Source: a virus. From it: a stretch of DNA of 64,000 nt. Positions 5,966 to 41,123 of this stretch are shown in pieces. Both the position numbers and the translations under genes were made by a program. The notes under the pieces were generated by a model that worked only from the letters and a program-made list of their open reading frames with translations, was not told where the DNA came from and did not search any database. The DNA is taken from IMG/VR virus record IMGVR_UViG_3300011443_000014, positions 2,563 to 66,562 of that record. One strand, written 5' to 3'. Position 1 is the stretch's first letter, and the number at the start of each line of letters is the position of its first letter.

Positions 5966-5974
5966 CGGTGTCTC

Positions 5975-7351
5975 CTACGGCGTGATGGTCAGGGTCAACG
6001 TGACGCGCGTGCAACTCGTCACGGAATCGACGTTGTAACCGAAGACCGCCCCCGCCGTCACGCTCGTCGTCCAGCCCGTCAGGGTCGTATCCTGGGATTT
6101 GTTCGCGCTACTCAGTGTCGGCGGGGCGCTCGCCGTGATGGAGTCGGCGTCCGTCGGCGGGTAGTTCGCGTACGTGTCCTTCCAGACGTCGAACACCACC
6201 GAGCACGCGGTAGCGCTGGCGTCCGTCGACAGCAGGGTCGCGGACACAATCGTCCCGCTGATCGGAGCGACCGAGAATCCTTTGACGCCCGTCGTGATGG
6301 CCGACCCCGCGCCGTCGACCGTGATCCCCATCGTCCGGTTGCCGCCACCGGACGCCGCGCCGAGTGACACCGTGACGCCGTTGATCCTGGCGTTCAGGAC
6401 CGTCCCGCTCGAGTTGTACCAGAGGTCGCCATCGGTCGGGGCCGACGGGTTGCCGGCGTGGGCGCCGACGTTCAGGCCCGCGTTCGTCGCGTTCGGGTTG
6501 AAGGTCTGGCGGATCCCATCCGGCAGGGTCAAGGTCCCCGTGTCGGTGGCACAGATGACCGAATCCTGAATCAGTTTTCCGGTCGTCGTGTTGTACCGGG
6601 CGAAACACTCGTCGGTGGCCGAGGCCGGGCCGACGACGTCGCCGCTTCCGGCGCCGGTCGCGACCTGGTCGGTCTGGCAGGAAAAGGTGTTCGTCGATGT
6701 GGCGTAGTGCAACTTTTCCGTGATGCTGTTGCACAGCGGCACCGCTTTGCATTGGTAGACCGACCCGTTCGACACCGCGACTTCGTCGTCGGCGCACAGA
6801 CTGGTCAGGCCGAGGCCGCCGAGCGATGGCGGGATGCTGGTGCACTCCTCGACGGCGCCCGTGCTGGCCGTCGTGCGGCAGAGCACGCGGGCCGTCGACA
6901 TGGTCAGGGCGCTCGTCGTGATCGCGCCTGGCACCACGTAGTCGGTCCCCGCGACCGCGATCGTCGGTACCCCGGTCGTCGTCGTGTTCTTCAGCAGTCC
7001 GGTCGCCAGCGCGCCGAGCGGGAATTCGTTCGACAGGCCGGCTTCCGCGACCTTCGTGATGTAGCTCGCCGCCGCGTCCGCTCCCGACCCGCCCGTGCCG
7101 ACTTCGACCCAGCCCGTGTTGTCGCACCCCGTCCCGGCTTGCTTGACGTAGAGGCCGACCGTCCCGCCAGAGGTCCGCCGGAACGTGGAGCCAGGACAGG
7201 CGCTCGTCGAGGCTTCCGGGTCTACGGCGCCGGTCAGGTCCTGGGGCGCCGTCGCGCACGCGCCGAAGCAGATCTTCGAGAACACCCCTGTCGGCTGCGC
7301 AGAGGCCGCCACAGACCACAGCAGCAGCACGAGGGTCAGCAGGTAACGCAT
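5975..7351 (-). CDS. Tail-fibre-like protein with signal peptide, Cys-rich
   Basis: Start reassigned to ATG 7351 (MRYLLTLVLLLWSVAASA-QPT); fibre-type motifs GDVVGPASATD..ARYNTTTGKLIQ and PSAPTDGDLWYN; multiple Cys pairs. Confidence 0.75.
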   Translation of the reverse strand: MRYLLTLVLLLWSVAASAQPTGVFSKICFGACATAPQDLTGAVDPEASTSACPGSTFRRTSGGTVGLYVKQAGTGCDNTGWVEVGTGGSGADAAASYITKVAEAGLSNEFPLGALATGLLKNTTTTGVPTIAVAGTDYVVPGAITTSALTMSTARVLCRTTASTGAVEECTSIPPSLGGLGLTSLCADDEVAVSNGSVYQCKAVPLCNSITEKLHYATSTNTFSCQTDQVATGAGSGDVVGPASATDECFARYNTTTGKLIQDSVICATDTGTLTLPDGIRQTFNPNATNAGLNVGAHAGNPSAPTDGDLWYNSSGTVLNARINGVTVSLGAASGGGNRTMGITVDGAGSAITTGVKGFSVAPISGTIVSATLLSTDASATACSVVFDVWKDTYANYPPTDADSITASAPPTLSSANKSQDTTLTGWTTSVTAGAVFGYNVDSVTSCTRVTLTLTITP

Positions 7352-7355
7352 GGTC

Positions 7356-9959
7356 CTAGCTCCTCGTGGCGAGCAACGTCGCCAGCGCAAACCCTTCGTA
7401 GGCCGCATCGTTGACTTTCGCTTGGAGGCGGATCGCTTTGGTCGTGGCCGGCAGGGCGATCGACGTGATCGTCTCCTCGTCGGCGATCGTCGTGGTGCCG
7501 ACCGGACTGGCCATCTCCGCAACGACCGTGTCGTCTTCGTCCACGACGCGGACCTGGATGGTCGCGCTCGCGTGGGAGCACCAGCGCTGCACGATCAGGC
7601 TCAACGTCCAGTTGTAGAAGTCGCCGGCGCGCACGGTCGGTGTCAGGCGGCCTGGCACGTCCACGTAACTCGTCGACGCGATCGGGGTCACATGCGACCC
7701 GCCGAGCTCTATCGTCGTCACCATGGGCGTCAGGTCCTCGAAAAATTCGGTCAGGTCCAACAGGCCGACCGTGACTTCCTCATTTGAGGCCGACAGTCGG
7801 TGGCTCACCGCAAAGCCCGGCGTTTCGACGTCGCCCAATTCTCCGGGTCCGTTGTAGTGCGTAAACCTTCGCACGTCGCCGAGATCCGTCGCAAGCCCCA
7901 TCAGGCCGAGCACCAGCGGCTGAATCCGCCGTGGCCGGCGCATCAGCCGGAACAGGCGGCTCGACACGTCCTGGGCCGTCGCGCGATCGCCAACGAACCG
8001 GAGCTCGAGCGGGTCGTCGTAGTAGGCAATCGGCCCGCCGTATTCGTCCGCCAGATCGCGGTCGGTGTGCAGCCCGTCTTCTTCCCGGAACCGGCGGGCT
8101 TCCGCGTCATAGTCCCACTTGAACGCCATCTTCGAGCAGACACGCTCGTCGACGATGGGCGGAAGCCAGCGCTTGATCTCGATGCGGTCGCGCCAGAGGG
8201 CGCCGCTCGAGGGCACCATCGTCTCGTCAATCAGGCGCGGCCCCAGTTGCCCTTGACAGCTGGTCCGCCAGTAGGCGGCGAGGCCCAGACTGGCGTGTCG
8301 GAGGACGTCGCGCACGGTCATCGGTTCGTCGATGACGAAGCGCAACTTGTAGCCGACCGCCGTCCCGAGGCGGAACCCGCTCGTCGTCTGCCCGTCCGTG
8401 AACAGGGAGCTCTGCAGACGTTCGACGCCGTCCGCGAACGTCGGCAGGCCGAGCCACGACCCCGTCTTATAGGTCGTCTGGTCGACGTCGAGGCCGGCCC
8501 AGTTCGACAGCAGGTGCTGGATGACGCGAAACCCGTGCACCAGCACGCCGCCCGTCGCGTCGGCGTTTTCGGTGTACCCGGGGATGTTCAGCGCGATCGC
8601 GACGACGCCTGAGACGTGGTGAAACGACCGAGGCCCACGCCCATAGAACACCGTGAACCGGCGCCCGTTCCGCTCGACCCACGGGTCGTCGTGCGGCCAT
8701 TCCGCGTCGTTCGGCCCGATGAAGTCTTTCCCCCAGATGGTCGGATCCATCAACGTCCGTTCGGGCGGCGCGCCGAGGACGTTGCTCGCATAGATGTCGA
8801 CCTGGTCCCACGACAGGGCGCCCGCGCACACGACGTAGGTGTCCCAGTACAACGGGCCGCTGCCCGGCGTGCCTGGCGTGCCGGCCGCCAGTTGAGCCGT
8901 GTTCGTCGTCGGCGGGGGCGGATACATCCCCTTGTCGTGACGGTCGTCGCCGTCGTCGATGTATTGGTCCGCCGCGTTACCGGCGGGGTTGTAGTTCATG
9001 TCGAGCCGGTACCGTGGGGTTCCGGTCGTCGAGTCGTCGAGGGCGTAGATCCGATAACCGATCACTTCTTCCGAGGGTTCCGGCGCCGTCCAGTCCCACG
9101 ACACGCGGTTCGGCAGACCTGGCACGAGCGAGTCGGAGAACTGGAGCTTCGGGTAGTCCGCGACCGTGACGATGTTGCTCAGGGTCGTCTCGCCGAAGTT
9201 CGTCACCGCCGTCACGCCGCAGCGCACGCTATGTGTCGGCAAGCCGCCCGGGTTGTAGACCGTGATCTCCAGGTTCGTCGGAGGGCTCAGATACGACGGG
9301 GCCGTACCGGGGGTGCCCGGGTACCCAGCCGAGATCAGGGTCTTCCCGACGTACTTGACCGGGACCAGTCCCTTCTCGGCCGACGCCGTCGCCGATGTCC
9401 CGTCGAGGGTCGCGCCGTGATCGCTGCACTCGCCGTAGACCAGCGGCACGACATGGTCCGCGATGTCGGGCGGGAATTCGTGCAGACCCGACCAGTCTTC
9501 CCCGAAGCGCCACAGCGGCAACTCGCGATCGAGGTCGATGGAGAGCAGGTCTCGCGACTCGATGATGACGCGCAGGCCGTCGAGCAGGGACACCTTGTCG
9601 ACTTTGCCGCGCCAGCCGATGCGCGGGGTCGCCCCCGTGTTGTACCCCTCCTCTGAGATCAGTTCGGCCTTCAGTTCCCAGCGCTTGTAGTTCTTCGTCG
9701 CGGGGTCACGGAGCAGGGCGCGAATGAAATGGTCCTGGTCGTCAAACTCGAGGCGCCACACGTCGACGTCGTACTCACCGTCCAGGGTCGACAGGTGGCG
9801 CACGATGTCGCCGTAGCCGCCTTCAACGATGCGGCCCTCGACCAGACCGGAGGCCGGCGCCATCGCGCGCGCCGAGAATCGGTACGTCTGCGTGGTGTCC
9901 GTCGGCCACGGACGGACATACAGCGTGCAGATCACGCGCAGTTGACGGTAGGTGCTCAC
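7356..9959 (-). CDS. Tail tip/central hub protein with FN3-like insertion
   Basis: 867 aa; downstream of tape measure and Dit-like gene; GTGA coupling; LSPPTNL..VSWDWTAP..VIGYRIY FN3-like segment. Confidence 0.7.
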   Translation of the reverse strand: MSTYRQLRVICTLYVRPWPTDTTQTYRFSARAMAPASGLVEGRIVEGGYGDIVRHLSTLDGEYDVDVWRLEFDDQDHFIRALLRDPATKNYKRWELKAELISEEGYNTGATPRIGWRGKVDKVSLLDGLRVIIESRDLLSIDLDRELPLWRFGEDWSGLHEFPPDIADHVVPLVYGECSDHGATLDGTSATASAEKGLVPVKYVGKTLISAGYPGTPGTAPSYLSPPTNLEITVYNPGGLPTHSVRCGVTAVTNFGETTLSNIVTVADYPKLQFSDSLVPGLPNRVSWDWTAPEPSEEVIGYRIYALDDSTTGTPRYRLDMNYNPAGNAADQYIDDGDDRHDKGMYPPPPTTNTAQLAAGTPGTPGSGPLYWDTYVVCAGALSWDQVDIYASNVLGAPPERTLMDPTIWGKDFIGPNDAEWPHDDPWVERNGRRFTVFYGRGPRSFHHVSGVVAIALNIPGYTENADATGGVLVHGFRVIQHLLSNWAGLDVDQTTYKTGSWLGLPTFADGVERLQSSLFTDGQTTSGFRLGTAVGYKLRFVIDEPMTVRDVLRHASLGLAAYWRTSCQGQLGPRLIDETMVPSSGALWRDRIEIKRWLPPIVDERVCSKMAFKWDYDAEARRFREEDGLHTDRDLADEYGGPIAYYDDPLELRFVGDRATAQDVSSRLFRLMRRPRRIQPLVLGLMGLATDLGDVRRFTHYNGPGELGDVETPGFAVSHRLSASNEEVTVGLLDLTEFFEDLTPMVTTIELGGSHVTPIASTSYVDVPGRLTPTVRAGDFYNWTLSLIVQRWCSHASATIQVRVVDEDDTVVAEMASPVGTTTIADEETITSIALPATTKAIRLQAKVNDAAYEGFALATLLATRS

Positions 9960-17127: not shown

Positions 17128-17535
17128 TTAGTCGAACCCGACGATCTTCCACGGGCCGCCCGCCACGTAGCTCGCGGCGATCTCGTTGGCGGACGTGACC
17201 GTGTTGGACATCGAGATCGAGAGCCACGCCGTCCCGTACGCGTACTTCGACGGCATGTTGCGCGACCAGTAGAGGTACACCTTCACCGGCGCGGTCGAGC
17301 GCTGGGCCTTGAACCACTTGTCTTCGTCTTCCTTGACAAAGCCATTGATGGTGCCCGTCAGGTCGGGCAGACCCTGCACGTACTGCTTGTTCGAGTCACC
17401 GAACGACGTCACTTCGACGGTGTCGGTGGCCATGTCCAGCGTCCACTCGCTCGCGCCCAGCAGCTCCGACGCTTCGGCGCTGCCATCTTCGGCGAGGTAG
17501 ACGATGGCGTCTTTCGCATGGTAAGGAACAGACAC
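17128..17535 (-). CDS. Major tail (tube) protein
   Basis: 135 aa; EWTLDMATDTVEVTSFGDSNKQYVQGLPDLTGTINGF tube-family motif; GGAGG RBS. Confidence 0.9.
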   Translation of the reverse strand: MSVPYHAKDAIVYLAEDGSAEASELLGASEWTLDMATDTVEVTSFGDSNKQYVQGLPDLTGTINGFVKEDEDKWFKAQRSTAPVKVYLYWSRNMPSKYAYGTAWLSISMSNTVTSANEIAASYVAGGPWKIVGFD

Positions 17536-17671: not shown

Positions 17672-18814
17672 TTACTGGACGGTCGAGGCCATCCCAGCCT
17701 CCACACTCATGTCCCGCACTGGTGCATCCCGCACGCAGTCCGCCACGCGCTCGAGGTCCGCGACGACCTGGCGCGCACGGTCGGTCCATGAATGCCCGCT
17801 GACCGTCGCGGGCAGCTGCGCAGCGATCGACCGACGGCCCGAGTCGTCAGTGAGAAAGCGGCGCAGCAGCATCTGAAGATCCGACGCGTTCCTGAAGGTC
17901 GGGACCAGTCGACCGAAGGTTTCCTCAACCTCAGGGCGGTACTCCGACAACGTGAACACACCGGAGGCCGCGAGCTCGTAGCTGCGCGGACCCAAACTCT
18001 CGGCCCCTTCAATCCTGGGGGCCTTCACCGCGAACCCGCACGACGAGCGGAACAGGTTCAGCGCAATCTTCGCTCGACGGTGGAGCATCGTCGTCGTCGT
18101 GTTGTCGACCGCGCCCTGGCGGACGAACTGCCGTAGCGGTGACTTCCGCCGCAGACGCCAGAAGCCGTAGAGGCCGAAGTCGATCCCCGTCCAGTCGACG
18201 GCCTCGAGGATTTCGACGCGCTCCTGGAACCCGGTCCCGACGAACACGACGTCGTGTGCCGGCACGTCAGGGTCGAGCGGGCCGCCCGGTTTGTGGACGT
18301 CGGCGTTGAAGCCGTGTCGGAGGTAGCTGGTCTCACGGCAGTAGTTCTGGAACCACCGTACGCCCGTCCGTTCATTCGTCCATGCGACGTCGCAGAACTG
18401 AATGGCGAAGGCTTCCTTCTTCGCGTCGTACGGGGTCTCGGTCAGGAGCATCGACACTCGAACCGGCGACCCGTCGCGGCGGCGGCACTGCTTCAACATG
18501 GCAAGGGCGTCGGGATGGAAATACATCCCCGACACGATCACGATCCAGTCCGGGTCGTGACGCAAGGCCCAGGTGACGGCGAGCTCGCTAGCCCACAAGG
18601 CCGCATCAGCGGCTCTCGGACGTGTGCCGCGTTCTTCCGGGGTGCGCCCCCGCCGTCGCCAGTGAGCCTCGAGCGCGACTCGGAGCACGCCGAACCGGCG
18701 CCCAAAGTAGTACGGCAGCACCTCGTGACCGGCCGCCTTCAGGCCGCCGACGAGGCCGTCGAAGACGTCGCGCGTCGACCAGTCGGCCGCCGGATCAATG
18801 CACAGGATCCGCAT
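17672..18814 (-). CDS. Glycosyltransferase, CgeB/DUF3880-like (GT-B)
   Basis: Start reassigned to MRILCID; motifs DVVFVGTG..ERVEIL, KIALNLFR, RSYELAASGVFTLSEYR. Confidence 0.85.
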   Translation of the reverse strand: MRILCIDPAADWSTRDVFDGLVGGLKAAGHEVLPYYFGRRFGVLRVALEAHWRRRGRTPEERGTRPRAADAALWASELAVTWALRHDPDWIVIVSGMYFHPDALAMLKQCRRRDGSPVRVSMLLTETPYDAKKEAFAIQFCDVAWTNERTGVRWFQNYCRETSYLRHGFNADVHKPGGPLDPDVPAHDVVFVGTGFQERVEILEAVDWTGIDFGLYGFWRLRRKSPLRQFVRQGAVDNTTTTMLHRRAKIALNLFRSSCGFAVKAPRIEGAESLGPRSYELAASGVFTLSEYRPEVEETFGRLVPTFRNASDLQMLLRRFLTDDSGRRSIAAQLPATVSGHSWTDRARQVVADLERVADCVRDAPVRDMSVEAGMASTVQ

Positions 18815-19328
18815 CAGCATCCTTGACCGCCGCAAAGGCGTAGACGTCGCACGGGCCTGGCGCCTCGAGTACCTGGCAGACGTCGAGCTCGCGTCCCGCA
18901 TCACGCAGCCAGAGGCGCAGCGTGTTGGGGTCGATGTTCTCGTAGAATTCGTCGGGCCGCAGGCCGCCGCCATCGTGCGCCGAATGAGGCTTGCGATTCG
19001 GACCGGCCGCCGTGATCAGGAGAATCCCACCCGGCGCCAGCATCTGGACCGCGCGCTGCACCATCCCCGCCGCGTCGGTCGCGTGTTCCAGGACCTCGCA
19101 GCAGACAATCGCTTCGGGTTGGAACGGCGGGTCGTACGCCATGAAGTCGGCCACCACGTCGACGCCCGGGCCTTTGTGCAGGTCGAGCGAGATGTACTCA
19201 GCCTCGCGCCCGAACAGGTCGCGGATCGTGCCGTTGATGTTCCGGCCACCGATCTCGAGGACCGTCGCCGGCATGCGCTTCAATGCCGTCGTGATCGAGG
19301 CGACGAATTGTCGGGCGTCAGGGTGCAT
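18795..19328 (-). CDS. Class I SAM-dependent methyltransferase (non-DNA type)
   Basis: VLEIGGRNING, LDLHKGPGVDVVAD, IVCCEVLEH, LAPGGILLIT. Confidence 0.85.
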   Translation of the reverse strand: MHPDARQFVASITTALKRMPATVLEIGGRNINGTIRDLFGREAEYISLDLHKGPGVDVVADFMAYDPPFQPEAIVCCEVLEHATDAAGMVQRAVQMLAPGGILLITAAGPNRKPHSAHDGGGLRPDEFYENIDPNTLRLWLRDAGRELDVCQVLEAPGPCDVYAFAAVKDADADPVH

Positions 19329-21514: not shown

Positions 21515-22666
21515 TTACGCCGCGCGCATGCGGACGCCGAGGTTCCCGTCGAGGATCTTCACGCCGTAGAGCACGTCGAGGGCCACGTAGACCTTCGACG
21601 TGTCACCGTCGTAGAACATCCGGGACCGGATGGCCAAGCCCGTGATGGGGTCGACGACCGACTCCACCTTCGCGCCCAGCTGGTTCGCAATCGACGGCAG
21701 CGGCGCCATCGCCAGCGCGGCCCAGTTCCGGTGGACCGCGATGTTCTGCGTCTTCGTCGCACCCGAGCCGCCCGACAGGACGACCGTCACGACCTGGTTG
21801 TCGACGAGCGCCGCCTTCAGCGGGGGGTAGATCGTCGCGCCCGTCACGACGCCCGTGCCGTCCGCCAGCGGGGCGTTCGTCAGGACATACTGCTGGGTCG
21901 CGCCCGTGAAGACGAGGATGTCGCCCGCCGCGAACTGCGCGGCCGCCGACACGCCGTCGAAGTTGATCGTCGACACGCCCGCGGCGAACGCGCCGTCAAC
22001 CGCACCCGCGAGGTCCGCCACCGTGGCGGAGGTCATCGACAGGCTGTTCTGGTTGGCGAACCACTCGACCCCGAACTTCGTGCCGAGCGTCCCGCGCATC
22101 TGCGTGTTGACGCCCGCATCGCCGGCGCCCTGCCACTGGCTGAACGCCGTCAGCGCCAGGAGCTTTTCCTCGAGGTAGCCGTCGATCATCCCGTGCAGGT
22201 CGTTCATCGGGACCTGGTTCGTGAACAGGACGCGCCGAGCCGCCGTCAGGTCCGCCACGGCCGCCGACGCCAGCGTGACGTCGGTGTACCACGGGATGAA
22301 CTTGATCAGCTGAATCAGCGCCTGATCGATGTTGTCCGCGAGCGCCACGGCCGCCGGGCGGATGTGGTCGTTGATGATCCGCTCGCCCGTGTACGCCAGT
22401 TCCTTGTCGGTCAGGGCGAACTTCACTTCCTTCCACTGATCGAGCTGGATGGTGACGGACTCGGGGTTGAGATCCTGCGCGGTCGACGGCGCGCTCTGCG
22501 CCGTGAAGGTGCCGGGCTTCGAGATCTGGATGCTCGAACCGGGCTGCTGTGGCGACTTGTCGTAGCCGCGATGGCACCGGGCCGCGAGGCCGAGCGCCTT
22601 TTCCAGCTGGATCAGCGCTTCGTTCGCATACCAGATGGGGTCATACGGGTTGATCACGTTGGACAT
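21515..22666 (-). CDS. Major capsid protein (P22 coat/gene 5 family)
   Basis: 383 aa; WYANEALIQLEKAL, VTIQLDQWKEVKFALTDKEL, HIRPAAVALADNID, LDVLYGVK. Confidence 0.92.
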   Translation of the reverse strand: MSNVINPYDPIWYANEALIQLEKALGLAARCHRGYDKSPQQPGSSIQISKPGTFTAQSAPSTAQDLNPESVTIQLDQWKEVKFALTDKELAYTGERIINDHIRPAAVALADNIDQALIQLIKFIPWYTDVTLASAAVADLTAARRVLFTNQVPMNDLHGMIDGYLEEKLLALTAFSQWQGAGDAGVNTQMRGTLGTKFGVEWFANQNSLSMTSATVADLAGAVDGAFAAGVSTINFDGVSAAAQFAAGDILVFTGATQQYVLTNAPLADGTGVVTGATIYPPLKAALVDNQVVTVVLSGGSGATKTQNIAVHRNWAALAMAPLPSIANQLGAKVESVVDPITGLAIRSRMFYDGDTSKVYVALDVLYGVKILDGNLGVRMRAA

Positions 22667-22804: not shown

Positions 22805-23602
22805 TCAGTCCACGATTTGCAACTGAAGGCCGGCCTTTTCGGCCTGGGCTTTGCTGTCCTTGTAGACCGACGCGTCTCGGGCTTGCTCCCGCGTGATCTT
22901 CAGCGTGTTCCCGACCTGCTGTGCGCCGTTCGCGGGGGTGTTCGTCCCACGGTTCGGTTCGAACAGGTGCGGGGCTTCACTCGTCAACGACGCGATCCAC
23001 TCTTCGACCTCGATGGGCTTCCCACCCGTCTTGCCGTAGTAGATCGTGCCGTCCTTGTACGGGACGAGTTTCCCGTCCTCGACCTTCCAGACGTCCTTCG
23101 CCCGGCGGGTCAAGTCGTTGATGGCGGTCGAGCGGATACCGGTCTTCGGGGCCGTCTGCGCGATCGCCGCGTTGATCAGGGTGTCGCCCAGCTGCGATTG
23201 CAGCGACGTCGCCTGGTCGGTGAACTTTTTGATGTCGGCTTGGAGGGCGGCAATCTGGGATTCGTGGTCGCGGCGCATCTTCTCGGTGCGCTTCGCGATC
23301 GCCTCCTCGAACTTGCCTTCCTTGATCAGTTTCGTCTCGGCGTTGGCTTCGCCGTCGGCCAGCCACTTCCGGTAGGCCTCGACGTCGACGCCCGTGTACT
23401 TCGCGGCCTCGTCGCGGGCGGCTTTCTCAGCGGCCGCGCGTGCCTGGCGTTCGGTGGAGAGCGCCGTCTTCAGCCCGCTCACGTCCTCGACGCCTTCGGC
23501 ATCGAGCAGGTAGGACCCGTCGGCTTGCTTCGTGTAGAGGGCTTTCAGCGCGTCCGCGAGGGCGCCGTGTTCGTCCGCTGTGACTTTGACTTTGAGGGCC
23601 AT
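22805..23602 (-). CDS. Capsid scaffold protein
   Basis: Start MALKVKV (GGAGA RBS); LYTKQADGSYLLD, VSGLKTALSTER, EAPHLFEP motifs; coiled coil; precedes the capsid gene. Confidence 0.85.
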   Translation of the reverse strand: MALKVKVTADEHGALADALKALYTKQADGSYLLDAEGVEDVSGLKTALSTERQARAAAEKAARDEAAKYTGVDVEAYRKWLADGEANAETKLIKEGKFEEAIAKRTEKMRRDHESQIAALQADIKKFTDQATSLQSQLGDTLINAAIAQTAPKTGIRSTAINDLTRRAKDVWKVEDGKLVPYKDGTIYYGKTGGKPIEVEEWIASLTSEAPHLFEPNRGTNTPANGAQQVGNTLKITREQARDASVYKDSKAQAEKAGLQLQIVD

Positions 23603-23645
23603 TCGTTCTCCGTGGCCATCCATCCCGGATGACCTGACGGAGGAT

Positions 23646-23674
23646 GTTGTAACGCAGTTCCCGGCGTTTGTCTA
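23646..23674 (-). promoter_or_regulatory. Putative sigma70-type promoter for scaffold/capsid
   Basis: TAGACA-17 bp-TACAAC on the minus strand. Confidence 0.5.
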
Positions 23675-24043
23675 GTCGGCGCCCCACAATTCGATGGACA
23701 GGTCGGTGTGAAACCGGCCCGGACTGAGGTCGAAGATCGCCGCGTCCCGCGCGCGTAGCGGGCGCAGCAGCAGTCGTTCGCCGCGGTCGGTCACGCCGCG
23801 AATCGTGTCGGCCACCACCGCCAGCGTCGTCACCGGCAACTCGAACCACCGCGAGTCGGTCCGGTACCGCAGAGTGCTCACGTCGGTCTCGAGGTCCGTC
23901 TCCAGACGCAGTTCGGCGGCGTAGGCGGTCAGGTCGCCACGCTGGACGGCGAACGGTCCGTAGGCCAGCGGGGGGTCATCCTGGCCGCGGTCCTTACCAC
24001 GCATGCCGGGCGGGATGTCGATAGGGTCGAGACGCACGCTCAT
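23672..24043 (-). CDS. Hypothetical protein, candidate immunity partner of the MuF fusion
   Basis: 123 aa; ATGA overlap with the MuF stop. Confidence 0.7.
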   Translation of the reverse strand: MSVRLDPIDIPPGMRGKDRGQDDPPLAYGPFAVQRGDLTAYAAELRLETDLETDVSTLRYRTDSRWFELPVTTLAVVADTIRGVTDRGERLLLRPLRARDAAIFDLSPGRFHTDLSIELWGAD

Positions 24044-27000: not shown

Positions 27001-28833
27001 GATGGCCTTCAGTTTCAGCGCGGGCTTCTGGAACTGGACGAAGTCGTCGATGTCGACGATCTCCACCTTCACCGGTTTCCCGAGGGCCTTGGCCGCCATC
27101 ATCAGGTCGGCCGACTTCTGGTCCGGAGCGACGTAATAGTTCGTGTAGCCGGGTACGGGCGACTGCTTGAACACCAGCACGGAGTCGGTCGTGTTCGTCA
27201 GGGCTTTCTGCGTGCCTTTCAACGATGCCGACTTCGCGCCCTTCGTGACGATCAGGTTGTCAGGGAATAGTTCGCTCGCTTGACGGTTCGGCATGGCGCC
27301 GATGATGTCGTCCGGGCTGATCAGCGCGTGCAGTTCGTCCTTGACCGCACTCCCCGGCAGGTCGTCGAACAGTTGGGTCGCTTCGTTGAACCCCAGTTCC
27401 TGTTTGAGATCGTGAACCTTCGGCCACCCCGCCTTCGTGAAGTCGTCGAGGTCGTAGAGCTTCATCGTCAGGTCGTCGGCGCCGTTCGCCCATTCGCCGT
27501 ACGCCTTCACGTTCCCGCGCCAGATGTAGGTCTTCCCTTCCCAGCGGACCGCCGTCACCGTCGGGGTCAATCCGTTCGGCATCGTGCCGGTCGCCAGATA
27601 CGACTCGATCTGCGCGGCCTTCGCGCCCGCCGCGGTCGTGTCGACGATCCCGGCGATGTCCTTCATCTTCACCGTCACCGTCGGCAGGTCGGAGATCTGG
27701 ACGGCGTCGTTCAGGTAGTCCAGGTGCGCCGGGTTCCACGTCGCCGCCGGATCGATGACCGTGAACGGCGAACCCGTCACCTTCCCCGCGTCGTCGACGC
27801 CGAGCGATCGGAGTTTCAGCAGATTCGACGGCACCGGCGGCGCCGGCCTGACGAACGGGGGCACACTCCGCGGCAGGTCCGGGATCGAGGGCCGAGGATA
27901 CGCCGGCGGCGGCACGAAGGGCTTCGCGCCCTTGAACGGCTTCGGGGCGCCTTTCCCTTCGGTCGGTTTGCCACGGACCAGCGCCATGACGCAGCGACAC
28001 TGCGGGTGTGCCGGCGGGGTGTCCTTCGGGCCGTACGTGGTTTTGAACGGTTCGGTCGGCTGGACCTGTTGCCCTTGCAGGGGCGCACAGTAGGGGCACA
28101 GACGGTCGTCCGGGGTCACGATCCAGCGCTTGACCATCCCGGCGCCGATCTCCCCCCGGTTCTTCGCTTCCGTCCACGCGTCCAGTTGGCCGGCGTGCAT
28201 CGCCGACAGGACCTCCGTCCTGGCGATGACCTCGCCGCGGGACCGGAGCAGTCGCTTCCGGTAGCGCTCGACGGCCTTGGCGGCGGCAGCCTGGGCCTTG
28301 GGCGTCGTCGCCTGGGTGAACCGCTCCTGGGCAAACTTGCCGAGCGCCGCCGCACGCCGGGGGTCGAGGCCGACCACCGCGCGCACCTGACGCGCCACGG
28401 TTTCCGCGGTCCCGCCGCCGGCGACGGCCTGAGCCACGATGTCCCGGACGGCGTTTCGTTGCGACTCCTGAATCTGGACGATCAGGTTCGATGAGCGGGT
28501 CGAGGCCCAGAGGACCGCCGAGGGGTTCACCAGCCGGAACTGACCGCCGAGGCCGAAGTGTGTCGGGACCGGGGCGTCGATCTGGCCGAGGGCCGCGCCC
28601 GCCGCCATGGCCTGGGACGTCGCCTGGAACAGGGCGCTTTCGAACGCCTGGGCGCCGGGGGCCCAGCCCTGGGCGACCGTCTGGGCGGCCTGGGTCCACT
28701 GCCCGGTCTTCAGACGGGACTCGACGAGCCGCCAGTTCACCGACGCCCCGGCCTTCTCAGCGGCCTCGAGGACGACGCGACGGTATCCGGGGATCTGGGC
28801 GTCGGCCGAGGCCAGCAACTCGCGCCAGCCCAT
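24040..28833 (-). CDS. MuF (gp7/gpF-type) minor head protein fused to ParB-like repeats, a kinase-like domain and an ART-like domain
   Basis: MuF: VIARTE, KRWIVTPDDRLCPYC, PPAHPQCRC; kinase: GPQGGSNPGG..WYVK..EMLANRIY..DVLTANWD..RIDQG; C-terminus: THFSH..IENGGL..DYIFTR..QETMFK. Confidence 0.88.
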   Translation of the reverse strand: MGWRELLASADAQIPGYRRVVLEAAEKAGASVNWRLVESRLKTGQWTQAAQTVAQGWAPGAQAFESALFQATSQAMAAGAALGQIDAPVPTHFGLGGQFRLVNPSAVLWASTRSSNLIVQIQESQRNAVRDIVAQAVAGGGTAETVARQVRAVVGLDPRRAAALGKFAQERFTQATTPKAQAAAAKAVERYRKRLLRSRGEVIARTEVLSAMHAGQLDAWTEAKNRGEIGAGMVKRWIVTPDDRLCPYCAPLQGQQVQPTEPFKTTYGPKDTPPAHPQCRCVMALVRGKPTEGKGAPKPFKGAKPFVPPPAYPRPSIPDLPRSVPPFVRPAPPVPSNLLKLRSLGVDDAGKVTGSPFTVIDPAATWNPAHLDYLNDAVQISDLPTVTVKMKDIAGIVDTTAAGAKAAQIESYLATGTMPNGLTPTVTAVRWEGKTYIWRGNVKAYGEWANGADDLTMKLYDLDDFTKAGWPKVHDLKQELGFNEATQLFDDLPGSAVKDELHALISPDDIIGAMPNRQASELFPDNLIVTKGAKSASLKGTQKALTNTTDSVLVFKQSPVPGYTNYYVAPDQKSADLMMAAKALGKPVKVEIVDIDDFVQFQKPALKLKAIEDPNAVNFGSVGNLVDVPFPKVATHNGIAQTAWDTAIKKTPVTSNVIVDLKDIHVTSAFAQEVAPTTMQFSQALPTIFKADGKYWVESSHGTQEVLKAWAKSAKTIVAKVVDLDPELAAYKASKKAAAVKHAAKKKAAKTGASSTSNLTPSSVQWVQQNGLGLDAAKKLNVLTAADQATAINHMNATFSTNVDDAIAAMINGQAKSVLPGPALSANGVIDEINALFGTSGPHTLTINKLKKLTAVEQKALVDDYKKGGATFTSKLNAVIDAKNAAPVVPPPVGPPVIPSAPAVLPQSLHGPAPAVDLEALVKKQVGPQGGSNPGGLFEAPDGSKWYVKFYPDAKQAQGEMLANRIYNDLGIGAPQSVSGVLADGRQVFASKYLDDVKGTVGNLGMTKDRADQILDGFVGDVLTANWDAVGTGLDNVVVLGNGQIRRIDQGGSFLFRAKAGLKPDNVLDEITEWDSFINKNVYYKQVFDGAGISSADDLGAKAVKQIDHVLALQKSKGGWKAYVDDVLPQADPTTKARIVKMLDARTKKLAAKRTEILNVINAPPPPPRVVPVLGRRSSSDVFGAQLNSQNSYDDAIALSLKAENASAGSGVTFDGGDIEGFEIRVRQVADHRGRAGGKPVTEFKFKLTGDAKTRATTKLAAEPGAVQPFHMPKQSVQGYGQRPHLTGTNAHSGISGKTYKVQVDADTEILFHRPDDSGWAYDGTVQIFVKNGAGTPDPKHLKAALDKLGVRSVSYPTDAQIAEYGENAFVRLFQTGVKDLNASERAKVLTEIKTKVGITPADIVLTKDDFGRPRLQFTDAATAKLKAHTKITHFSHSLSSSSESTIMSMIENGGLSATTTRYSEGIGVSGMSSSSDIQTGGADYIFTRQHTGAKTGRANVTLSGDLLRRLDWFAYASDTYGAQNPNSRSGVHSRNNLQNVQYTSGSQETMFKHRIDWDDIDSIRIGDTAVRNSVIAKARAKGITHLGRRRLEDIFK

Positions 28834-28836
28834 GTT

Positions 28837-29076
28837 CTAGGCCTTCAGGGACAGGTTGTGGGTTTGCAGGTCGGACATCAGGCGGCGAACGAGGTCGTCG
28901 TCGATCTGGTTGGCGAGGGTTTGGGCCGCTGGACGGAGGTACCGCTCGACAAGGTCGACGTGGACGACCTTCTCGCCGAAGTCGAACGAGACTTCGAAGA
29001 ACTTCGGCGGGGTCGGGCAGACGAGGGCCGCGACCGGGACCGCCAGCAGGGACAGCAGGAACGACCGCCGGTTCAC
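28837..29076 (-). CDS. Small protein with twin-arginine-like leader and a capsid-protein-like segment
   Basis: GTG start overlapping the portal TGA, GGAGG RBS; (M)NRRSFLLSLLAVPVAAL..EVSFDF..ERYLRPAAQTLANQIDDDL. Confidence 0.7.
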   Translation of the reverse strand: MNRRSFLLSLLAVPVAALVCPTPPKFFEVSFDFGEKVVHVDLVERYLRPAAQTLANQIDDDLVRRLMSDLQTHNLSLKA

Positions 29077-30560
29077 TCCTGGCCTCCCGCGCCCTGGTCC
29101 CCTGGTTCGGGGGGGGGCGTCGGCTGGCCAGGTTGCCCTGGCACCGGCGCCGGGTCGGGCGGTTCTTCGGCTTCGATGGTCGTCCGTTCTTCCTCGTACT
29201 CGACGTTCGGGCGGGCAATCTCGCCCGTCTGCAGGTTCCAGTAGAGGGTCTTTCCCGAGATGCCGCCGGCTTGCCACGCCTTCACCAGCGAATCGAGCTC
29301 CTGCGCGGTCAGGCGGGTCTCGAGGAAATCCGTGTTCAGTTGGATCGACACCTTCGAGGCCGAGTCCACGTCGACGTCGCCGTACCCCTGCCACCATGCG
29401 TGGATTCGCAAGGCCTGAGTGAGGCCCATCGACTGCGCCCGGGCCAGCAGCCCGAGGGCTGAGGTCTCGCCGGCGTGCCTGAGGCGCACGGCTTCGGCCG
29501 TCTCCTGGACTCCGGGTTGGCTCTCGAGCAGACGGGCGCCGACCGTCGCCATCTGATGTTCTTTCCGGTCGAGGGCTTTCTCCACGGCGCCGAGGCCGGT
29601 CCCCGTGAATTCCAGCATCGCCACCCGGGCGTCCTTCGAGGGGATCACCCACGCCGTCCCGCTGCCGATCTTCAGGGGAGTCGCGTTGTTCGTCCAGCCG
29701 GTCACGTAGGGCGTCGGTAGCGCCGTGAAGTGCAGCCCGTATTCGTAGTCGACGCTCGACCGCCAATGCGACAGGTTCAACAGGGCGAGGTCGAGCAGGG
29801 GCGGCTTCGCGACCGCCGGTTCAGGGCGTCGAGGTCCGAGAAAGACGAACGGGATGAACGGCAACGGCTTCCCGCGACGGATGAACGCCGACCACGGGCC
29901 GGGAGTGTAGGTCTTCTTCCCGTTCACCGTCGTCTCGACCCACGTCCTCGAGGCCGCCACCTTCTGGCCGCCCTCCGTCGCCATCAGGGCCAGTTCACGA
30001 TACGTGCACTTGCGTTCCTGTTTGTAGGGGTCGGTCGGTGACGGCACCCAGCCGTCGTCTTCGAGCACCACGCGGTCGAGTACAACCTGGCCGCTCTCCA
30101 TGCGCGCTTGCCAGTTCACAATCGACTCGGCCCGCCAGAGGGACCAGTACGGGCGGTTCAACGTCTCGGACCAGTCGACACTGACTCCCGCGCGACCGAC
30201 GACCAGCAACTCCTCCAGCGAGCTCGAGACGAATTCGAGCAGCCCTTCGCCATAGAGCGTGATCCCGCTCTCGACGTCGACGCTGGTCGGCACCTTCACC
30301 TGAGCGGGCTTGCGCAGCACCATCCCGGTCAGGCCGATGATGGTGCGCTCGACGGCCGGGAAAAACGTCCCGCGATCGAGGTACGCCTTGAATTCACGGG
30401 CGTCCGCGTGATCGCAACCCTCGAGCAGGGGCACGTAGGCCACGCCAGCGGAACGAACGGCCTGTTCCCCGGCGTAGGTGTCACGACAGGGCTTCCACCA
30501 GAGGGCGGCGGCTTGCAGGTAGGCCGGATGTCGTGTCGTGATGTCAGGGGTCTCTGGCAC
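29073..30560 (-). CDS. Portal protein (DUF4055-like)
   Basis: 495 aa directly after TerL; YLDRGTFFPAVERT, PPLLDLALLNLSHW..DYEYGLHFTALP. Confidence 0.9.
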   Translation of the reverse strand: MPETPDITTRHPAYLQAAALWWKPCRDTYAGEQAVRSAGVAYVPLLEGCDHADAREFKAYLDRGTFFPAVERTIIGLTGMVLRKPAQVKVPTSVDVESGITLYGEGLLEFVSSSLEELLVVGRAGVSVDWSETLNRPYWSLWRAESIVNWQARMESGQVVLDRVVLEDDGWVPSPTDPYKQERKCTYRELALMATEGGQKVAASRTWVETTVNGKKTYTPGPWSAFIRRGKPLPFIPFVFLGPRRPEPAVAKPPLLDLALLNLSHWRSSVDYEYGLHFTALPTPYVTGWTNNATPLKIGSGTAWVIPSKDARVAMLEFTGTGLGAVEKALDRKEHQMATVGARLLESQPGVQETAEAVRLRHAGETSALGLLARAQSMGLTQALRIHAWWQGYGDVDVDSASKVSIQLNTDFLETRLTAQELDSLVKAWQAGGISGKTLYWNLQTGEIARPNVEYEEERTTIEAEEPPDPAPVPGQPGQPTPPPEPGDQGAGGQE

Positions 30561-30590: not shown

Positions 30591-31997
30591 TCAGCGGCGG
30601 CGCATGCTGCCGAATCCCGCGATCGAGACGACGCCGCCCCCGGTTCCGTGAACGAGATCGTCGAGGGCGCCCGACGCCGCGTCGGCCTGGTCGTCGTGGC
30701 CACCGGGGAGGTTTTCCAGTTCCTTCACGAACACCGCGTTCCAGGGCGCACGCAGCAGGTAGACGTTCCGGGCCTTCGCCGCCACCGCGAGGGGTTTCCA
30801 CCGTGTTTGCTTCGGGCCAGTCGCACGTTCGCCTGAGTAGTCGTAGCCCAACATCTCGAGCCGACGACGATAGACCACCGCTTTCCCGCTCGAGCCCGGT
30901 TCCTGTTCTTCGCGCACCGCGCACGCCACCCCGTCGTCACGCGCGGTGGATTTGATCTCCGCGTCGACGTCGGCCGGGTCCCATTGTCCGTGCCGCACGT
31001 CGGCGATGATGACGCGGCCGTCTTCGTGAATCCCGAGTTTCACGCCGGCGGTCCAGTCCGGGTCCTGTGCCGACACGGAGGTCTCGTCCACTTCCGTCGA
31101 GGCCACGTCCCAGAAGCGACACCAGCGGATGTACCCCTCCGGGATCGCGTCGACGTAGCGGAACCAGTCGCCACGGAAGATGGTCCCCGCCGTCGCACGC
31201 ACGTTCCAGTTCCCACGCCGCAGCCGCATCTGGTCGACGTAGGGCAGGGCCTCGAGACGCGCCTCGTACGACGGGTCGACCGTGCGCAGCGCTTGGTTTT
31301 CTTCGAGGGTCATCGGCTGAAACGACAACGACAGCGGCGACACGACGTTCCCGAATTCCGCCTTCAGGGCTTCCGCGCTCTCGCCCCAGTGCAGGTTGTT
31401 CCCCCGACGCACGAACCACCGGACCACGCCGGCGCGGGTCCCGATGGGGAACCCGGTCTCGGCGTCGATCCACCAGTCGACGAGTTTCCGCAGCCAGCCG
31501 CCCACCGGGTCGTCGTCAGGCACCGGGTTCGCGGTCGCGCGGCAGTAGGGCCGCACGCCAGACACCGACCGCAACCTCGAGATGAGGTACCAGAACTGCC
31601 CCTCCGTGAATTCTTCCAGCTGGTCGAACAGGAGGGTCGCGATCTGCGCGCCTTTCCAACCGAGCTTGTCCTTTTCCAGCTGCAGGGACCGGAACTGCAC
31701 GACGTTCCGACCGGGCCAGACCCAGTCCATGTAGTTCGACCGGCCGCCGATCAGCGGGTAGAGGCCCGTCGACTCCTGCCAGAGGCCACCGACGGCCTTC
31801 AGTTGTGGATTCGTGCGCCGGAAGATCACCGCGTTGTAGTTCGTGCGGCGGAGCACGTGTCGGGTCGGTTCGAGCAGGAGGCCGTAGGACTTCCCCCCTC
31901 CTGCCTGACCACCGCCGATGCAGATGTCGGCCCGGTTCTGCGCGAACGCCGTCTGGCCGCCCGCTTGAGGGCCGATCTGCAGGTCGGTCGGGAGCAT
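30591..31997 (-). CDS. terL: Terminase large subunit
   Basis: Start reassigned to ATG 31997 (TGATG coupling); Walker A GGQAGGGKS; RATANP; nuclease motifs RFWDVA, DWTAG, HDDQADA. Confidence 0.93.
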   Translation of the reverse strand: MLPTDLQIGPQAGGQTAFAQNRADICIGGGQAGGGKSYGLLLEPTRHVLRRTNYNAVIFRRTNPQLKAVGGLWQESTGLYPLIGGRSNYMDWVWPGRNVVQFRSLQLEKDKLGWKGAQIATLLFDQLEEFTEGQFWYLISRLRSVSGVRPYCRATANPVPDDDPVGGWLRKLVDWWIDAETGFPIGTRAGVVRWFVRRGNNLHWGESAEALKAEFGNVVSPLSLSFQPMTLEENQALRTVDPSYEARLEALPYVDQMRLRRGNWNVRATAGTIFRGDWFRYVDAIPEGYIRWCRFWDVASTEVDETSVSAQDPDWTAGVKLGIHEDGRVIIADVRHGQWDPADVDAEIKSTARDDGVACAVREEQEPGSSGKAVVYRRRLEMLGYDYSGERATGPKQTRWKPLAVAAKARNVYLLRAPWNAVFVKELENLPGGHDDQADAASGALDDLVHGTGGGVVSIAGFGSMRRR

Positions 31998-32626
31998 CAG
32001 CGGCCGATCCAGCCGGTCGGGGTCTTCCTGAAGTCGAGGGGATGCTGGCACTTCGGACAGGTAATCGGGGTTCCGGGGAGCATCCGAGAGAATTCGGCGT
32101 TCCACGGAACGTCCCAGACCACCCGGGCGAGGGACAGCAGGCCGGTCGCGGGGGCCGCCGCGTTCGCCGGGACACGTCCGAACACGGTCTGGCAGTGGCC
32201 GCACTCGATGGTCGGGTCCGGATCGCGGCCTCCCCCGAACGGTTTGCCGTAGCTGCTGGACCCTGGCGCCTCGAGGGCCTGGGCGAGCGGGGGCGTCGGC
32301 AAACCAGGGGCGAAATCCTTAATGATTTTGAGGGCCGCACTCCCCTGGACTGGGCCAGACGGGGTCCCCTGGTCGGCCCCCTGGTCGGCCCCCTGGTCGC
32401 CTGGCTCGAGCGCCTGGCTCGAGATGCCTGGCGCGGGCCTCGAGAGCAGGCCGGCCAGCAGGTGGATCGAGCCGGTCGTTGACTCGAGGGCCGCCAGCAG
32501 CTGGCCTTGGATGGCTTCCCAGACCAGCGGGTCCTCTAGCCGGGAGTGAAACCGTGGGTCGAGGGTCTGGATTGTCAGGTCGAGCTTCAGGAGATCGCCG
32601 ATCCGGGTCGTTCGGGTCGTTCGCAT
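31997..32626 (-). CDS. Hypothetical protein with C-terminal zinc ribbon
   Basis: CGHC...CPKC; coupled to terL. Confidence 0.65.
   Translation of the reverse strand: MRTTRTTRIGDLLKLDLTIQTLDPRFHSRLEDPLVWEAIQGQLLAALESTTGSIHLLAGLLSRPAPGISSQALEPGDQGADQGADQGTPSGPVQGSAALKIIKDFAPGLPTPPLAQALEAPGSSSYGKPFGGGRDPDPTIECGHCQTVFGRVPANAAAPATGLLSLARVVWDVPWNAEFSRMLPGTPITCPKCQHPLDFRKTPTGWIGR
32366..32399. repeat. 12-bp tandem repeat (~2.8 copies)
   Basis: cccctggtcggc unit encoding DQGA repeats. Confidence 0.7.
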
Positions 32627-40802: not shown

Positions 40803-41123
40803 TCATTCTCCTTGAAGGGTCGCCCGGATGTCGAAGCGGACATCCCGCATCCCGCGCATGTACTGCGAGGTGTGGTCCGCGAACGACGTGACGTCGATGG
40901 TCTCATGGGTCACGTCCACGCCGCAGAGGACGCCGACTTGTCGGAACGCGCCGTCGATGAACAGGTAAAGCGGCGGATCTTCTTTGGCTTGCCATCCGGC
41001 CTGGACGGTCGCAATGACTTCGACGAGTGAGGCCAGCGTCGTCGTCGGCGGGTGTGCTTGAACTTTCCGTACAGACGGCAGGGTCTCGAGCTCGACGCCG
41101 TCTACGAGGATCCGTCGCTTCAT
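40803..41123 (-). CDS. Hypothetical protein with a tail-tube-like C-terminal segment
   Basis: 106 aa, ATGA-coupled; VDVTHETIDVTSFADHTSQYMRGMRD. Confidence 0.7.
   Translation of the reverse strand: MKRRILVDGVELETLPSVRKVQAHPPTTTLASLVEVIATVQAGWQAKEDPPLYLFIDGAFRQVGVLCGVDVTHETIDVTSFADHTSQYMRGMRDVRFDIRATLQGE

Follow-up and report, generated by a model that had tools for sequence, protein, structure and literature searches.

In a metagenomic record of an uncultured phage (an IMG/VR virus record of 66.9 kb with 66% G+C, of which a stretch of 64,000 nucleotides, here called the window, was analyzed), we found a small gene, P0001, whose predicted product joins a leader of the twin-arginine (Tat) type to a segment resembling part of the major capsid protein of P22-like phages. 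Our preferred reading, held at a probability of roughly 40% and resting on sequence comparison, is that P0001 may be a conflict-related capsid mimic sent by Tat to the membrane or periplasm and encoded by a dispensable, late, moron-type gene. What suggests this reading is the combination of a conserved leader, retained capsid residues, a mobile and dispensable gene, and late translation together with head genes. P0001 represents a new small family built from known parts, and our literature search found no paper on a protein with a Tat leader and a capsid fragment.

The head genes of the window lie on the minus strand in the order terminase, portal, P0001, MuF, a 123-aa ORF, scaffold, and capsid (Table 1).

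Table 1. Positions in the window of the head genes and of the parts of P0001 and its capsid counterpart.
Feature	Position	Strand	Remark
Large terminase	30591-32204	-	Head-module order
Portal protein (DUF4055)	29073..30560	-	PF13264 E 3e-41; stop overlaps start of small gene
Shine-Dalgarno GGGAGG	29083..29088	-	6 nt before the P0001 GTG, within the portal's last codons
Small gene P0001, 79 codons	28837..29076, stop included	-	Tat-like leader and capsid-derived segment
P0001 leader, residues 1-22	29011..29076	-	N-R-R-S-F-L-L, then Pro-containing hydrophobic stretch
P0001 residues 24-70, capsid-homologous segment	28867..29007	-	hhalign, shuffles, PF11651, phrog_283
P0001 core motif R-Y-L-R-P-A-A-Q-T-L-A-N-Q-I-D, residues 45-59	28900..28944	-	Corresponds to the amino end of the capsid spine helix
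MuF-domain polyvalent head protein, 1597 aa	24040..28833	-	PF04233 E 2.4e-16
123-aa ORF	23672-24043	-	Without Pfam or PHROG family
Scaffold	22805-23623	-	phrog_206 E 1e-38
Major capsid protein P0002, P22/Sf6 type, 383 aa	21515..22666	-	PF11651 E 1.3e-22; phrog_283 E 5.7e-56
Capsid residues 76-121, WKEVKFAL...DHIRPAAVALADNIDQALIQLI	22304..22441	-	Segment resembled by P0001

Some further features of the phage were observed around this module. In L011, a contig whose capsid is 81% identical to that of the window, the MuF protein (4182-8114, 1310 aa) has Pfam domains for ART and ADP-ribosylating exotoxin where the window MuF has its C-terminal payloads, so that MuF cargo is swapped between close relatives. 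A methyltransferase and glycosyltransferase pair (PF13489, PF13524) lies inside the head-tail module of both the window (17672-19328) and L011 (13350-15015), and is thus conserved within this phage group. Downstream of the tail genes, two large ORFs of the window (5975-7351 and 3242-5965, both on the minus strand) begin with classic Sec-type signal peptides (MRYLLTLVLLLWSVAASAQP... and MRGLLIRLIVFLALTSSASADT...), which suggests that several exported proteins are encoded by the phage. As for the host phylum, there is a weak hint in that related capsids (P0192, P0220, P0221, and P0224; 56-59% identical) are named in Acidobacteriota MAGs, belonging to Vicinamibacterales and Acidobacteriia.

P0001 is a real gene, and it is translationally coupled to the portal and MuF genes. 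Its GTG start (29076-29074) overlaps the TGA of the portal gene (GTGA) and is preceded by a Shine-Dalgarno sequence; the same GGAGG-N6-GTG arrangement is found in L005, the contig of the homolog P0130, and the small gene of a further contig, L002, also starts as in the window. Its TAG stop (28839-28837) is followed by 3 nt and then by the ATG of MuF at 28833, in frame. The GC contents at the three codon positions (0.70/0.35/0.91) form a coding signature that is absent from the other frames of the stretch and matches the pattern of the portal, MuF, and capsid genes. An earlier, sequence-only reading of the window had described a 79-aa protein coupled to the portal stop and preceding MuF, and the position, length, and sequence of the ORF are as it described them. 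The succession of small-gene stop, 3 nt, and MuF start in the same frame was observed in the window (28831-28839, with TAG) as well as in L005 (646-654, with TGA), and this spacing probably reflects termination-reinitiation coupling. Stop-codon read-through from the small gene into MuF was also considered; as the stops differ between the two contigs, termination-reinitiation is the simpler reading.

The leader of P0001 has a twin-arginine consensus near the N-terminus followed by a hydrophobic h-region. Tat signal peptides share the consensus (S/T)-R-R-x-F-L-K, and R3, R4, F6, and L7 are invariant in all four sequences of the P0001 family, whose motifs read NRRSFLL, NRRQFLL, NRRSFLL, and, in P0132, GRRGFLK. 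Ala and Pro abound in the short h-region, a basic residue immediately precedes the Pro-rich start of the mature part in P0130 and P0132, and an AF2 model of P0001 places a leader helix at residues 3-18. The Tat profile PF10518 (TAT_signal) gave 15.4 bits for P0001 and 18.2 and 12.8 bits for two other members against a cut-off of 22.7, remaining below threshold in these three of the four sequences, and gave no match for the 36-residue fragment P0126. TIGR01409 exceeded its cut-off (19.0 vs. 16.7) in P0132 only, so that a Tat HMM cut-off is reached in one of the four. The best PDB sequence match in a profile search was the Tat signal of NapA, at a non-significant score. The twin-arginine-like leader of the sequence-only reading (NRRSFLL and a hydrophobic stretch) is present, with a sub-threshold PF10518 score.

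This leader is also the best conserved and most constrained part of the family. Between the window and L005, it is 82% identical in amino acids with an omega of 0.13, whereas the mature part is 36% identical with an omega of ~0.86, and the flanking portal and MuF segments are 67-69% identical with an omega of ~0.3; these omega values are rough and of limited use, because dS is saturated at ~0.9-1.0 and compressed by the GC3 bias. The difference between leader and mature part suggests that targeting is the most constrained function of the protein, and the fast evolution of the mature part fits an arms race but also relaxed constraint. The dN/dS comparison that had been proposed as a check thus indicates constraint for the leader and, with saturated dS, is ambiguous for the mature part. 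A lipoprotein or o-spanin (Rz1-like) reading of the leader was considered and rejected: LVC and FVC have Val at -1 and do not form the lipobox L-[AS]-[GA]-C, and the Cys is not conserved (Ser in P0130, Ala in P0132). We also searched for an origin of the leader from out-of-frame translation of capsid DNA, and no alignment in four capsid genes exceeded z > 3.

Behind the leader, residues 24-70 of P0001 resemble the E-loop strand and spine helix of the capsid, and as judged from profile and shuffle comparisons this homology is real. Plain BLASTP of P0001 against the capsid found nothing, and profile and shuffle methods were needed. In Smith-Waterman alignment, P0001 scored 50 against P0002, compared with a shuffle mean of 25.6 (SD 4.0). 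The mature parts of P0001, P0130, and P0132 each align best to capsid residues ~96-119, and the observed score was reached by 0, 4, and 0 of 2000 shuffles, respectively. When the small family was aligned with 32 capsids in hhalign, residues 24-70 paired with capsid residues 76-121 over 43 columns at 30% identity (~13 identities), with a probability of 93% and an E value of 3.3e-7 (a second figure being 6.2e-7). In a rerun, the score of this alignment, 46.5, lay far above that of 200 column-shuffled controls (mean 13.1, SD 2.7, maximum 21.6) and of the reversed alignment (12.8). Two capsid profiles fall on the same spot of P0001 below their thresholds: PF11651, with profile positions 86-127 at E 0.024-0.054 (12.7 bits for the whole protein and 13.9 for the mature part, against a gathering threshold of 24), and phrog_283, the family of the resident capsid, with positions 101-127 at E 0.003. 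PF11651 gave no match to P0130 or P0132, and among Pfam and PHROG no structural family matches P0001 as a whole. When a collection was scanned with the family motif as seed, the matches were all full-length capsids of the P22 type.

The residues that the family retains are those that the capsids retain as well. R45, Y46, R48, P49, A50, A55, and D59 are invariant in the family and align with capsid H101, R103, P104, A105, A110, and D114 (R48/P49/A50/A55/D59 with R103/P104/A105/A110/D114); H101, P104, A110, and D114 are invariant in 32 of 32 capsids. The AlphaFold model of the resident capsid (pLDDT 84, pTM 0.81) has the full fold and shows a strand at 77-86, a short helix at 87-90, and a 30-residue spine helix at 94-123, and its best Foldseek matches are the coats of Sf6, P22, and CUS-3 (E 1e-19 to 1e-17). 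Located on this model, the aligned segment indicates that P0001 contains the return strand of the E-loop together with most of the spine helix. The AF2 model of P0001 has the leader helix, a coil, and a long helix at 40-78 (pLDDT 65 overall, ~80 in the long helix); at 79 aa, P0001 does not hold a complete HK97 fold of ~380-430 residues. The similarity between P0001 and the capsid that had been seen by eye, with its ~13 identities and its placement at the E-loop and spine helix of a P22-type fold, is accordingly upheld by the hhalign and shuffle results and by the strand and helix of the capsid model.

That similarity had been drawn to this phage's own capsid, and here only the homology stands. 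The family motif R-Y-[IL]-R-P-A-A is as found in the capsids of L013 and L014 (DRYIRPAAEALANQID, 65% identity over 20 residues), whereas the clade of the resident capsid reads D-H-I-R-P-A-A (DHIRPAAVALADNID) with an invariant H. Being nearer to other P22-type capsids than to the resident one (RYIRPAA vs. DHIRPAA), the motif shows that the segment was not recently copied from the phage's own capsid gene; it is either an old exaptation or an import from another P22-type lineage.

These retained residues bear on two alternatives. P0001 could be an exported envelope effector for which capsid ancestry is irrelevant, acting for example in superinfection exclusion or lysis timing or in a spanin-like manner, with the helix serving as a generic oligomerizer. 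The conserved leader would suit this role, as would the small size, the single N-terminal hydrophobic segment, the long charged helix, and the presence of other Sec-signal proteins in the phage. We regard it as distinctly unlikely, because what is kept across 37% identity are capsid invariants (P104, A110, D114) and the EV.F strand, there is no conserved lipobox Cys, no endolysin, holin, or spanin partner is adjacent, and exclusion genes are usually expressed from prophages and not from late operons. Very unlikely, in our view, is a functionless remnant or an over-called ORF that happens to include a stray capsid piece in GC-rich DNA. Long spurious ORFs are indeed common at 66% GC, and the mature-part omega and the great rarity of the family point the same way, but the frame-specific GC3 pattern, the Shine-Dalgarno sequence, and the start are shared by four lineages, ORFs of comparable length (75-89 aa) remain intact at dS ~1, the leader omega is low, and even the distant P0132 keeps the strand and helix motifs. 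The decay expected of a pseudogene, which the sequence-only reading had named as a refutation, is not seen: intact homologs keep both the leader and the core motif.

The P0001 family is small. Three homologs were found (P0130, P0132, and P0126, at 37-59% identity). Two of them came from an exhaustive HMMER search of 1.84 billion representative proteins: P0130, with 89 aa and 52% identity across the matched region, and P0132, with 75 aa and 37% identity. P0126 is a 36-residue fragment of the family. Two other HMMER matches, P0129 (837 aa) and P0131 (284 aa), were discarded as unrelated tandem-repeat proteins that score by summed repeats. A word-index search with P0001 returned only P0001 itself, and scans of viral, genome, and metagenome contigs, run with single proteins and with alignments, turned up full-length capsids but no further small homologs. 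No family member was found by tblastn among 50,697 cultured phage records, in species-representative genomes, or in JGI metagenome contigs, and a search of the ESM Atlas gave only scores below 0.9. The four known sequences are all metagenomic, three of them on contigs too short to show capsids; P0130 and P0132 occur on three contigs each that are identical in DNA and so carry no population signal.

The genomic settings of these genes indicate that the family gene is accessory. In L005, the layout is that of the window, with the portal C-terminus, GTGA, the small gene, TGA, CCC, and the GTG start of MuF. In the case of P0007, the portal protein most similar to that of the window (63% identical), the contig breaks off after the first 36 codons of a GTGA-overlap gene reading VNRRQFLLSLFVAPIAAAAAPFVCPRPRWHEVTFAL, and this truncated gene (P0126), by its sequence, clearly belongs to the P0001 family. 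The junction between portal and MuF is the site in two of the three homologs. P0132 (on L008) belongs to another kind of phage, where it lies among small genes and follows an 82-aa ORF and the C-terminus of an unlike terminase, so that the family gene has changed its genomic context. Portal is followed directly by MuF, without a small gene, in L003 and L004 (portals ~48% identical) and in L011, and the gene is therefore accessory and dispensable for such heads. It sits at junctions where accessory genes insert.

The 82-aa ORF immediately upstream of P0132 (833-1081, plus strand) overlaps the P0132 start by 7 nt and has a hydrophobic stretch after an N-terminus that resembles the capsid N-arm. 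Its residues 5-45 align with N-arm residues 8-61 at an hhalign P of 0.03 and a probability of 1.6%, which is weak and not significant, and BLASTP with this ORF found nothing. On the basis of such similarity, the ORF and P0132 may together represent the rearranged 5' end (~120 codons) of a capsid gene.

The distribution also weighs on a role in the head itself, either in assembly or as an internal virion protein, in which the spine-helix copy would bind scaffold, portal, or MuF and the N-terminus would serve as a membrane tether for prohead initiation or as a leader like that of ejection proteins. The gene is translationally coupled between portal and MuF in three lineages, and its invariant R-P-A falls at the position of a scaffold-capsid contact in phage SPP1, whose scaffold binds the spine helix at its amino end and whose assembly is impaired by D109N or P110A substitutions there (PMC6813328). 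This role is nevertheless quite unlikely: the gene is absent alongside the 81% identical capsid and from other phages with the same set of portal, MuF, and scaffold; P0132 adjoins neither portal nor MuF; the RRxFL motif would have no reason; and no PHROG or Pfam structural family matches the whole of P0001. An essential function in assembly or size determination in particular is unlikely, because phages with so similar a capsid lack the gene.

P0001 is not the only separate fragment of a virion protein in this phage. A middle-region ORF of 106 aa (40803-41123, minus strand) shares homology with the first ~60 residues of the major tail protein (135 aa; 17128-17535, minus strand; phrog_1407), with a BLASTP E value of 2e-7 at 33% identity over 52 aa and a Smith-Waterman score of 75 against a shuffle mean of 25 (z 11.6). 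No signal peptide was found in this ORF. The tail-tube fragment reported earlier at 40.8 kb is thereby recovered, and together with P0001 it indicates that the phage keeps at least two free-standing fragments of virion proteins.

This second fragment, lacking a leader, is among the points in favor of a cytoplasmic function for P0001, namely as a decoy or sponge for a capsid-sensing defense (CapRel-like, Lit/Gol-like, or PifA-like), the leader then being a tether to the inner face of the membrane or incidental. The copied strand and spine helix are the region predicted to be contacted by CapRel-SJ46, the gene is accessory with a fast-evolving mature part, and a decoy function has been put forward for fragment fusions of a giant virus (PMC5871332). 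By analogy with these systems such a decoy is conceivable, yet we consider it rather unlikely, as it leaves the best conserved part of the protein, RRxFL and the leader, unexplained. Moreover, the motif is nearer to other capsid clades than to the resident capsid, a peptide co-expressed with the portal, a low-copy protein, would be greatly outnumbered by the capsid protein, and the host of the phage has no known sensor.

The reading we prefer, an exported capsid mimic, would work as follows. The pre-protein would consist of a Tat-type signal peptide and a mature part of ~55 residues, putatively exapted from a P22-type major capsid protein and made up of the return strand of the E-loop and, from the spine helix of the P-domain, the first two thirds. 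The leader would take the peptide to the Tat translocon, and P0001 would act at or beyond the inner membrane. There, the kept residues R-P-A-A..A-L-A..I-D would imitate the inner-face element of the P-domain that capsid partners recognize, and the peptide would block or divert a host or rival-phage factor recognizing this element, rather than take part in building virions. That such an element can be recognized is suggested by the SPP1 scaffold described above, the amino end of the spine helix being an established docking position on the inner face of HK97-fold capsids, and by CapRel-SJ46, whose predicted capsid contacts lie on the P-domain beta-sheet and spine helix, where its escape mutations also map (PMC9712102). 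The tail-tube fragment gene of the same phage adds to the plausibility of mimicry. It is worth noting that mimicry and export sit awkwardly together, since an exported peptide is cut off from cytoplasmic capsids, scaffolds, and known sensors; in addition, the small-residue motif of the helix could be kept simply for self-association. A more specific version, drawn from the sequence features above, is that tailed phages export a folded spine-helix mimic via Tat that either neutralizes a capsid-recognizing factor of the envelope or, as a hitchhiker carrier, takes a cytoplasmic sensor out of the cell, and we consider this version quite unlikely.

Capsid proteins are among the main molecules by which bacterial immune systems detect phages, and the spine helix is the part predicted to be contacted in the best-studied case of capsid sensing. 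If the reading as an exported mimic is true, P0001 and the tail-tube fragment gene may point to a general phage strategy of free-standing epitope mimics of structural proteins, and, if P0001 acts in counter-defense, protein-epitope mimics would join the known counter-defense repertoire. Genes of the P0001 type could then be natural reagents for finding capsid recognizers in uncultured soil bacteria. P0001 is also a clean case in which a piece of a structural gene has been exapted as a separate small gene, of a kind usually left unannotated in phage genomes.

Among known proteins, P0001 is most directly comparable to the P22/Sf6 capsids (PF11651, phrog_283), to which residues 24-70 are homologous, with the capsid-invariant P, A, A, and D and the EV.F strand. 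It differs from them in having only ~45 of ~400 residues, matched below threshold, and an export-type leader, and, without the A-domain, the P-domain sheet, the N-arm, and the insertion domain, it cannot form a shell. The leader resembles Tat signals such as that of NapA and those of hitchhiker systems, in which small subunits bearing a Tat signal carry their partners across the membrane (PMC4273604), in the R-R-x-F-L motif, the moderately hydrophobic h-region with Pro, Ala, and Gly, and the basic residues near the putative cleavage site in two family members. By contrast with Tat signal proteins, the cargo of P0001 is a tiny phage peptide without a cofactor, and Tat HMM cut-offs are reached in only one of the four sequences.

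The capsid element itself is known as a trigger of defense. The Gol peptide of T4 gp23 is sensed by Lit. CapRel-SJ46 senses the P-domain sheet and spine helix of SECphi27 Gp57 (PMC9712102). The same structural element of the HK97-fold capsid is thus the recognized surface; however, Gp57 and gp23 present it as part of full-length capsids that activate defenses, whereas P0001 is a free-standing gene. For Bodo saltans virus, a decoy role has been suggested for fusions that contain fragments of essential genes (Deeg et al. 2018, PMC5871332). These, like P0001, join a short piece of an essential protein to an unrelated handle and are kept as separate small genes, their decoy role being a proposal only. 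In that eukaryotic giant virus an ankyrin-repeat domain serves as the handle, whereas the tailed phage uses a bacterial export signal. Finally, CpmB of SaPI1 mimics the scaffold in competition for the capsid's inner face (PMC5644958), and, by analogy, P0001 may likewise be a small helical protein that reproduces the element by which an assembly protein binds and that competes for the binding partner. CpmB copies the C-terminus of the scaffold, is encoded by a pirate element, and changes the capsid size, whereas P0001 would copy the capsid side of such a contact, is encoded by the phage itself, and carries a leader.
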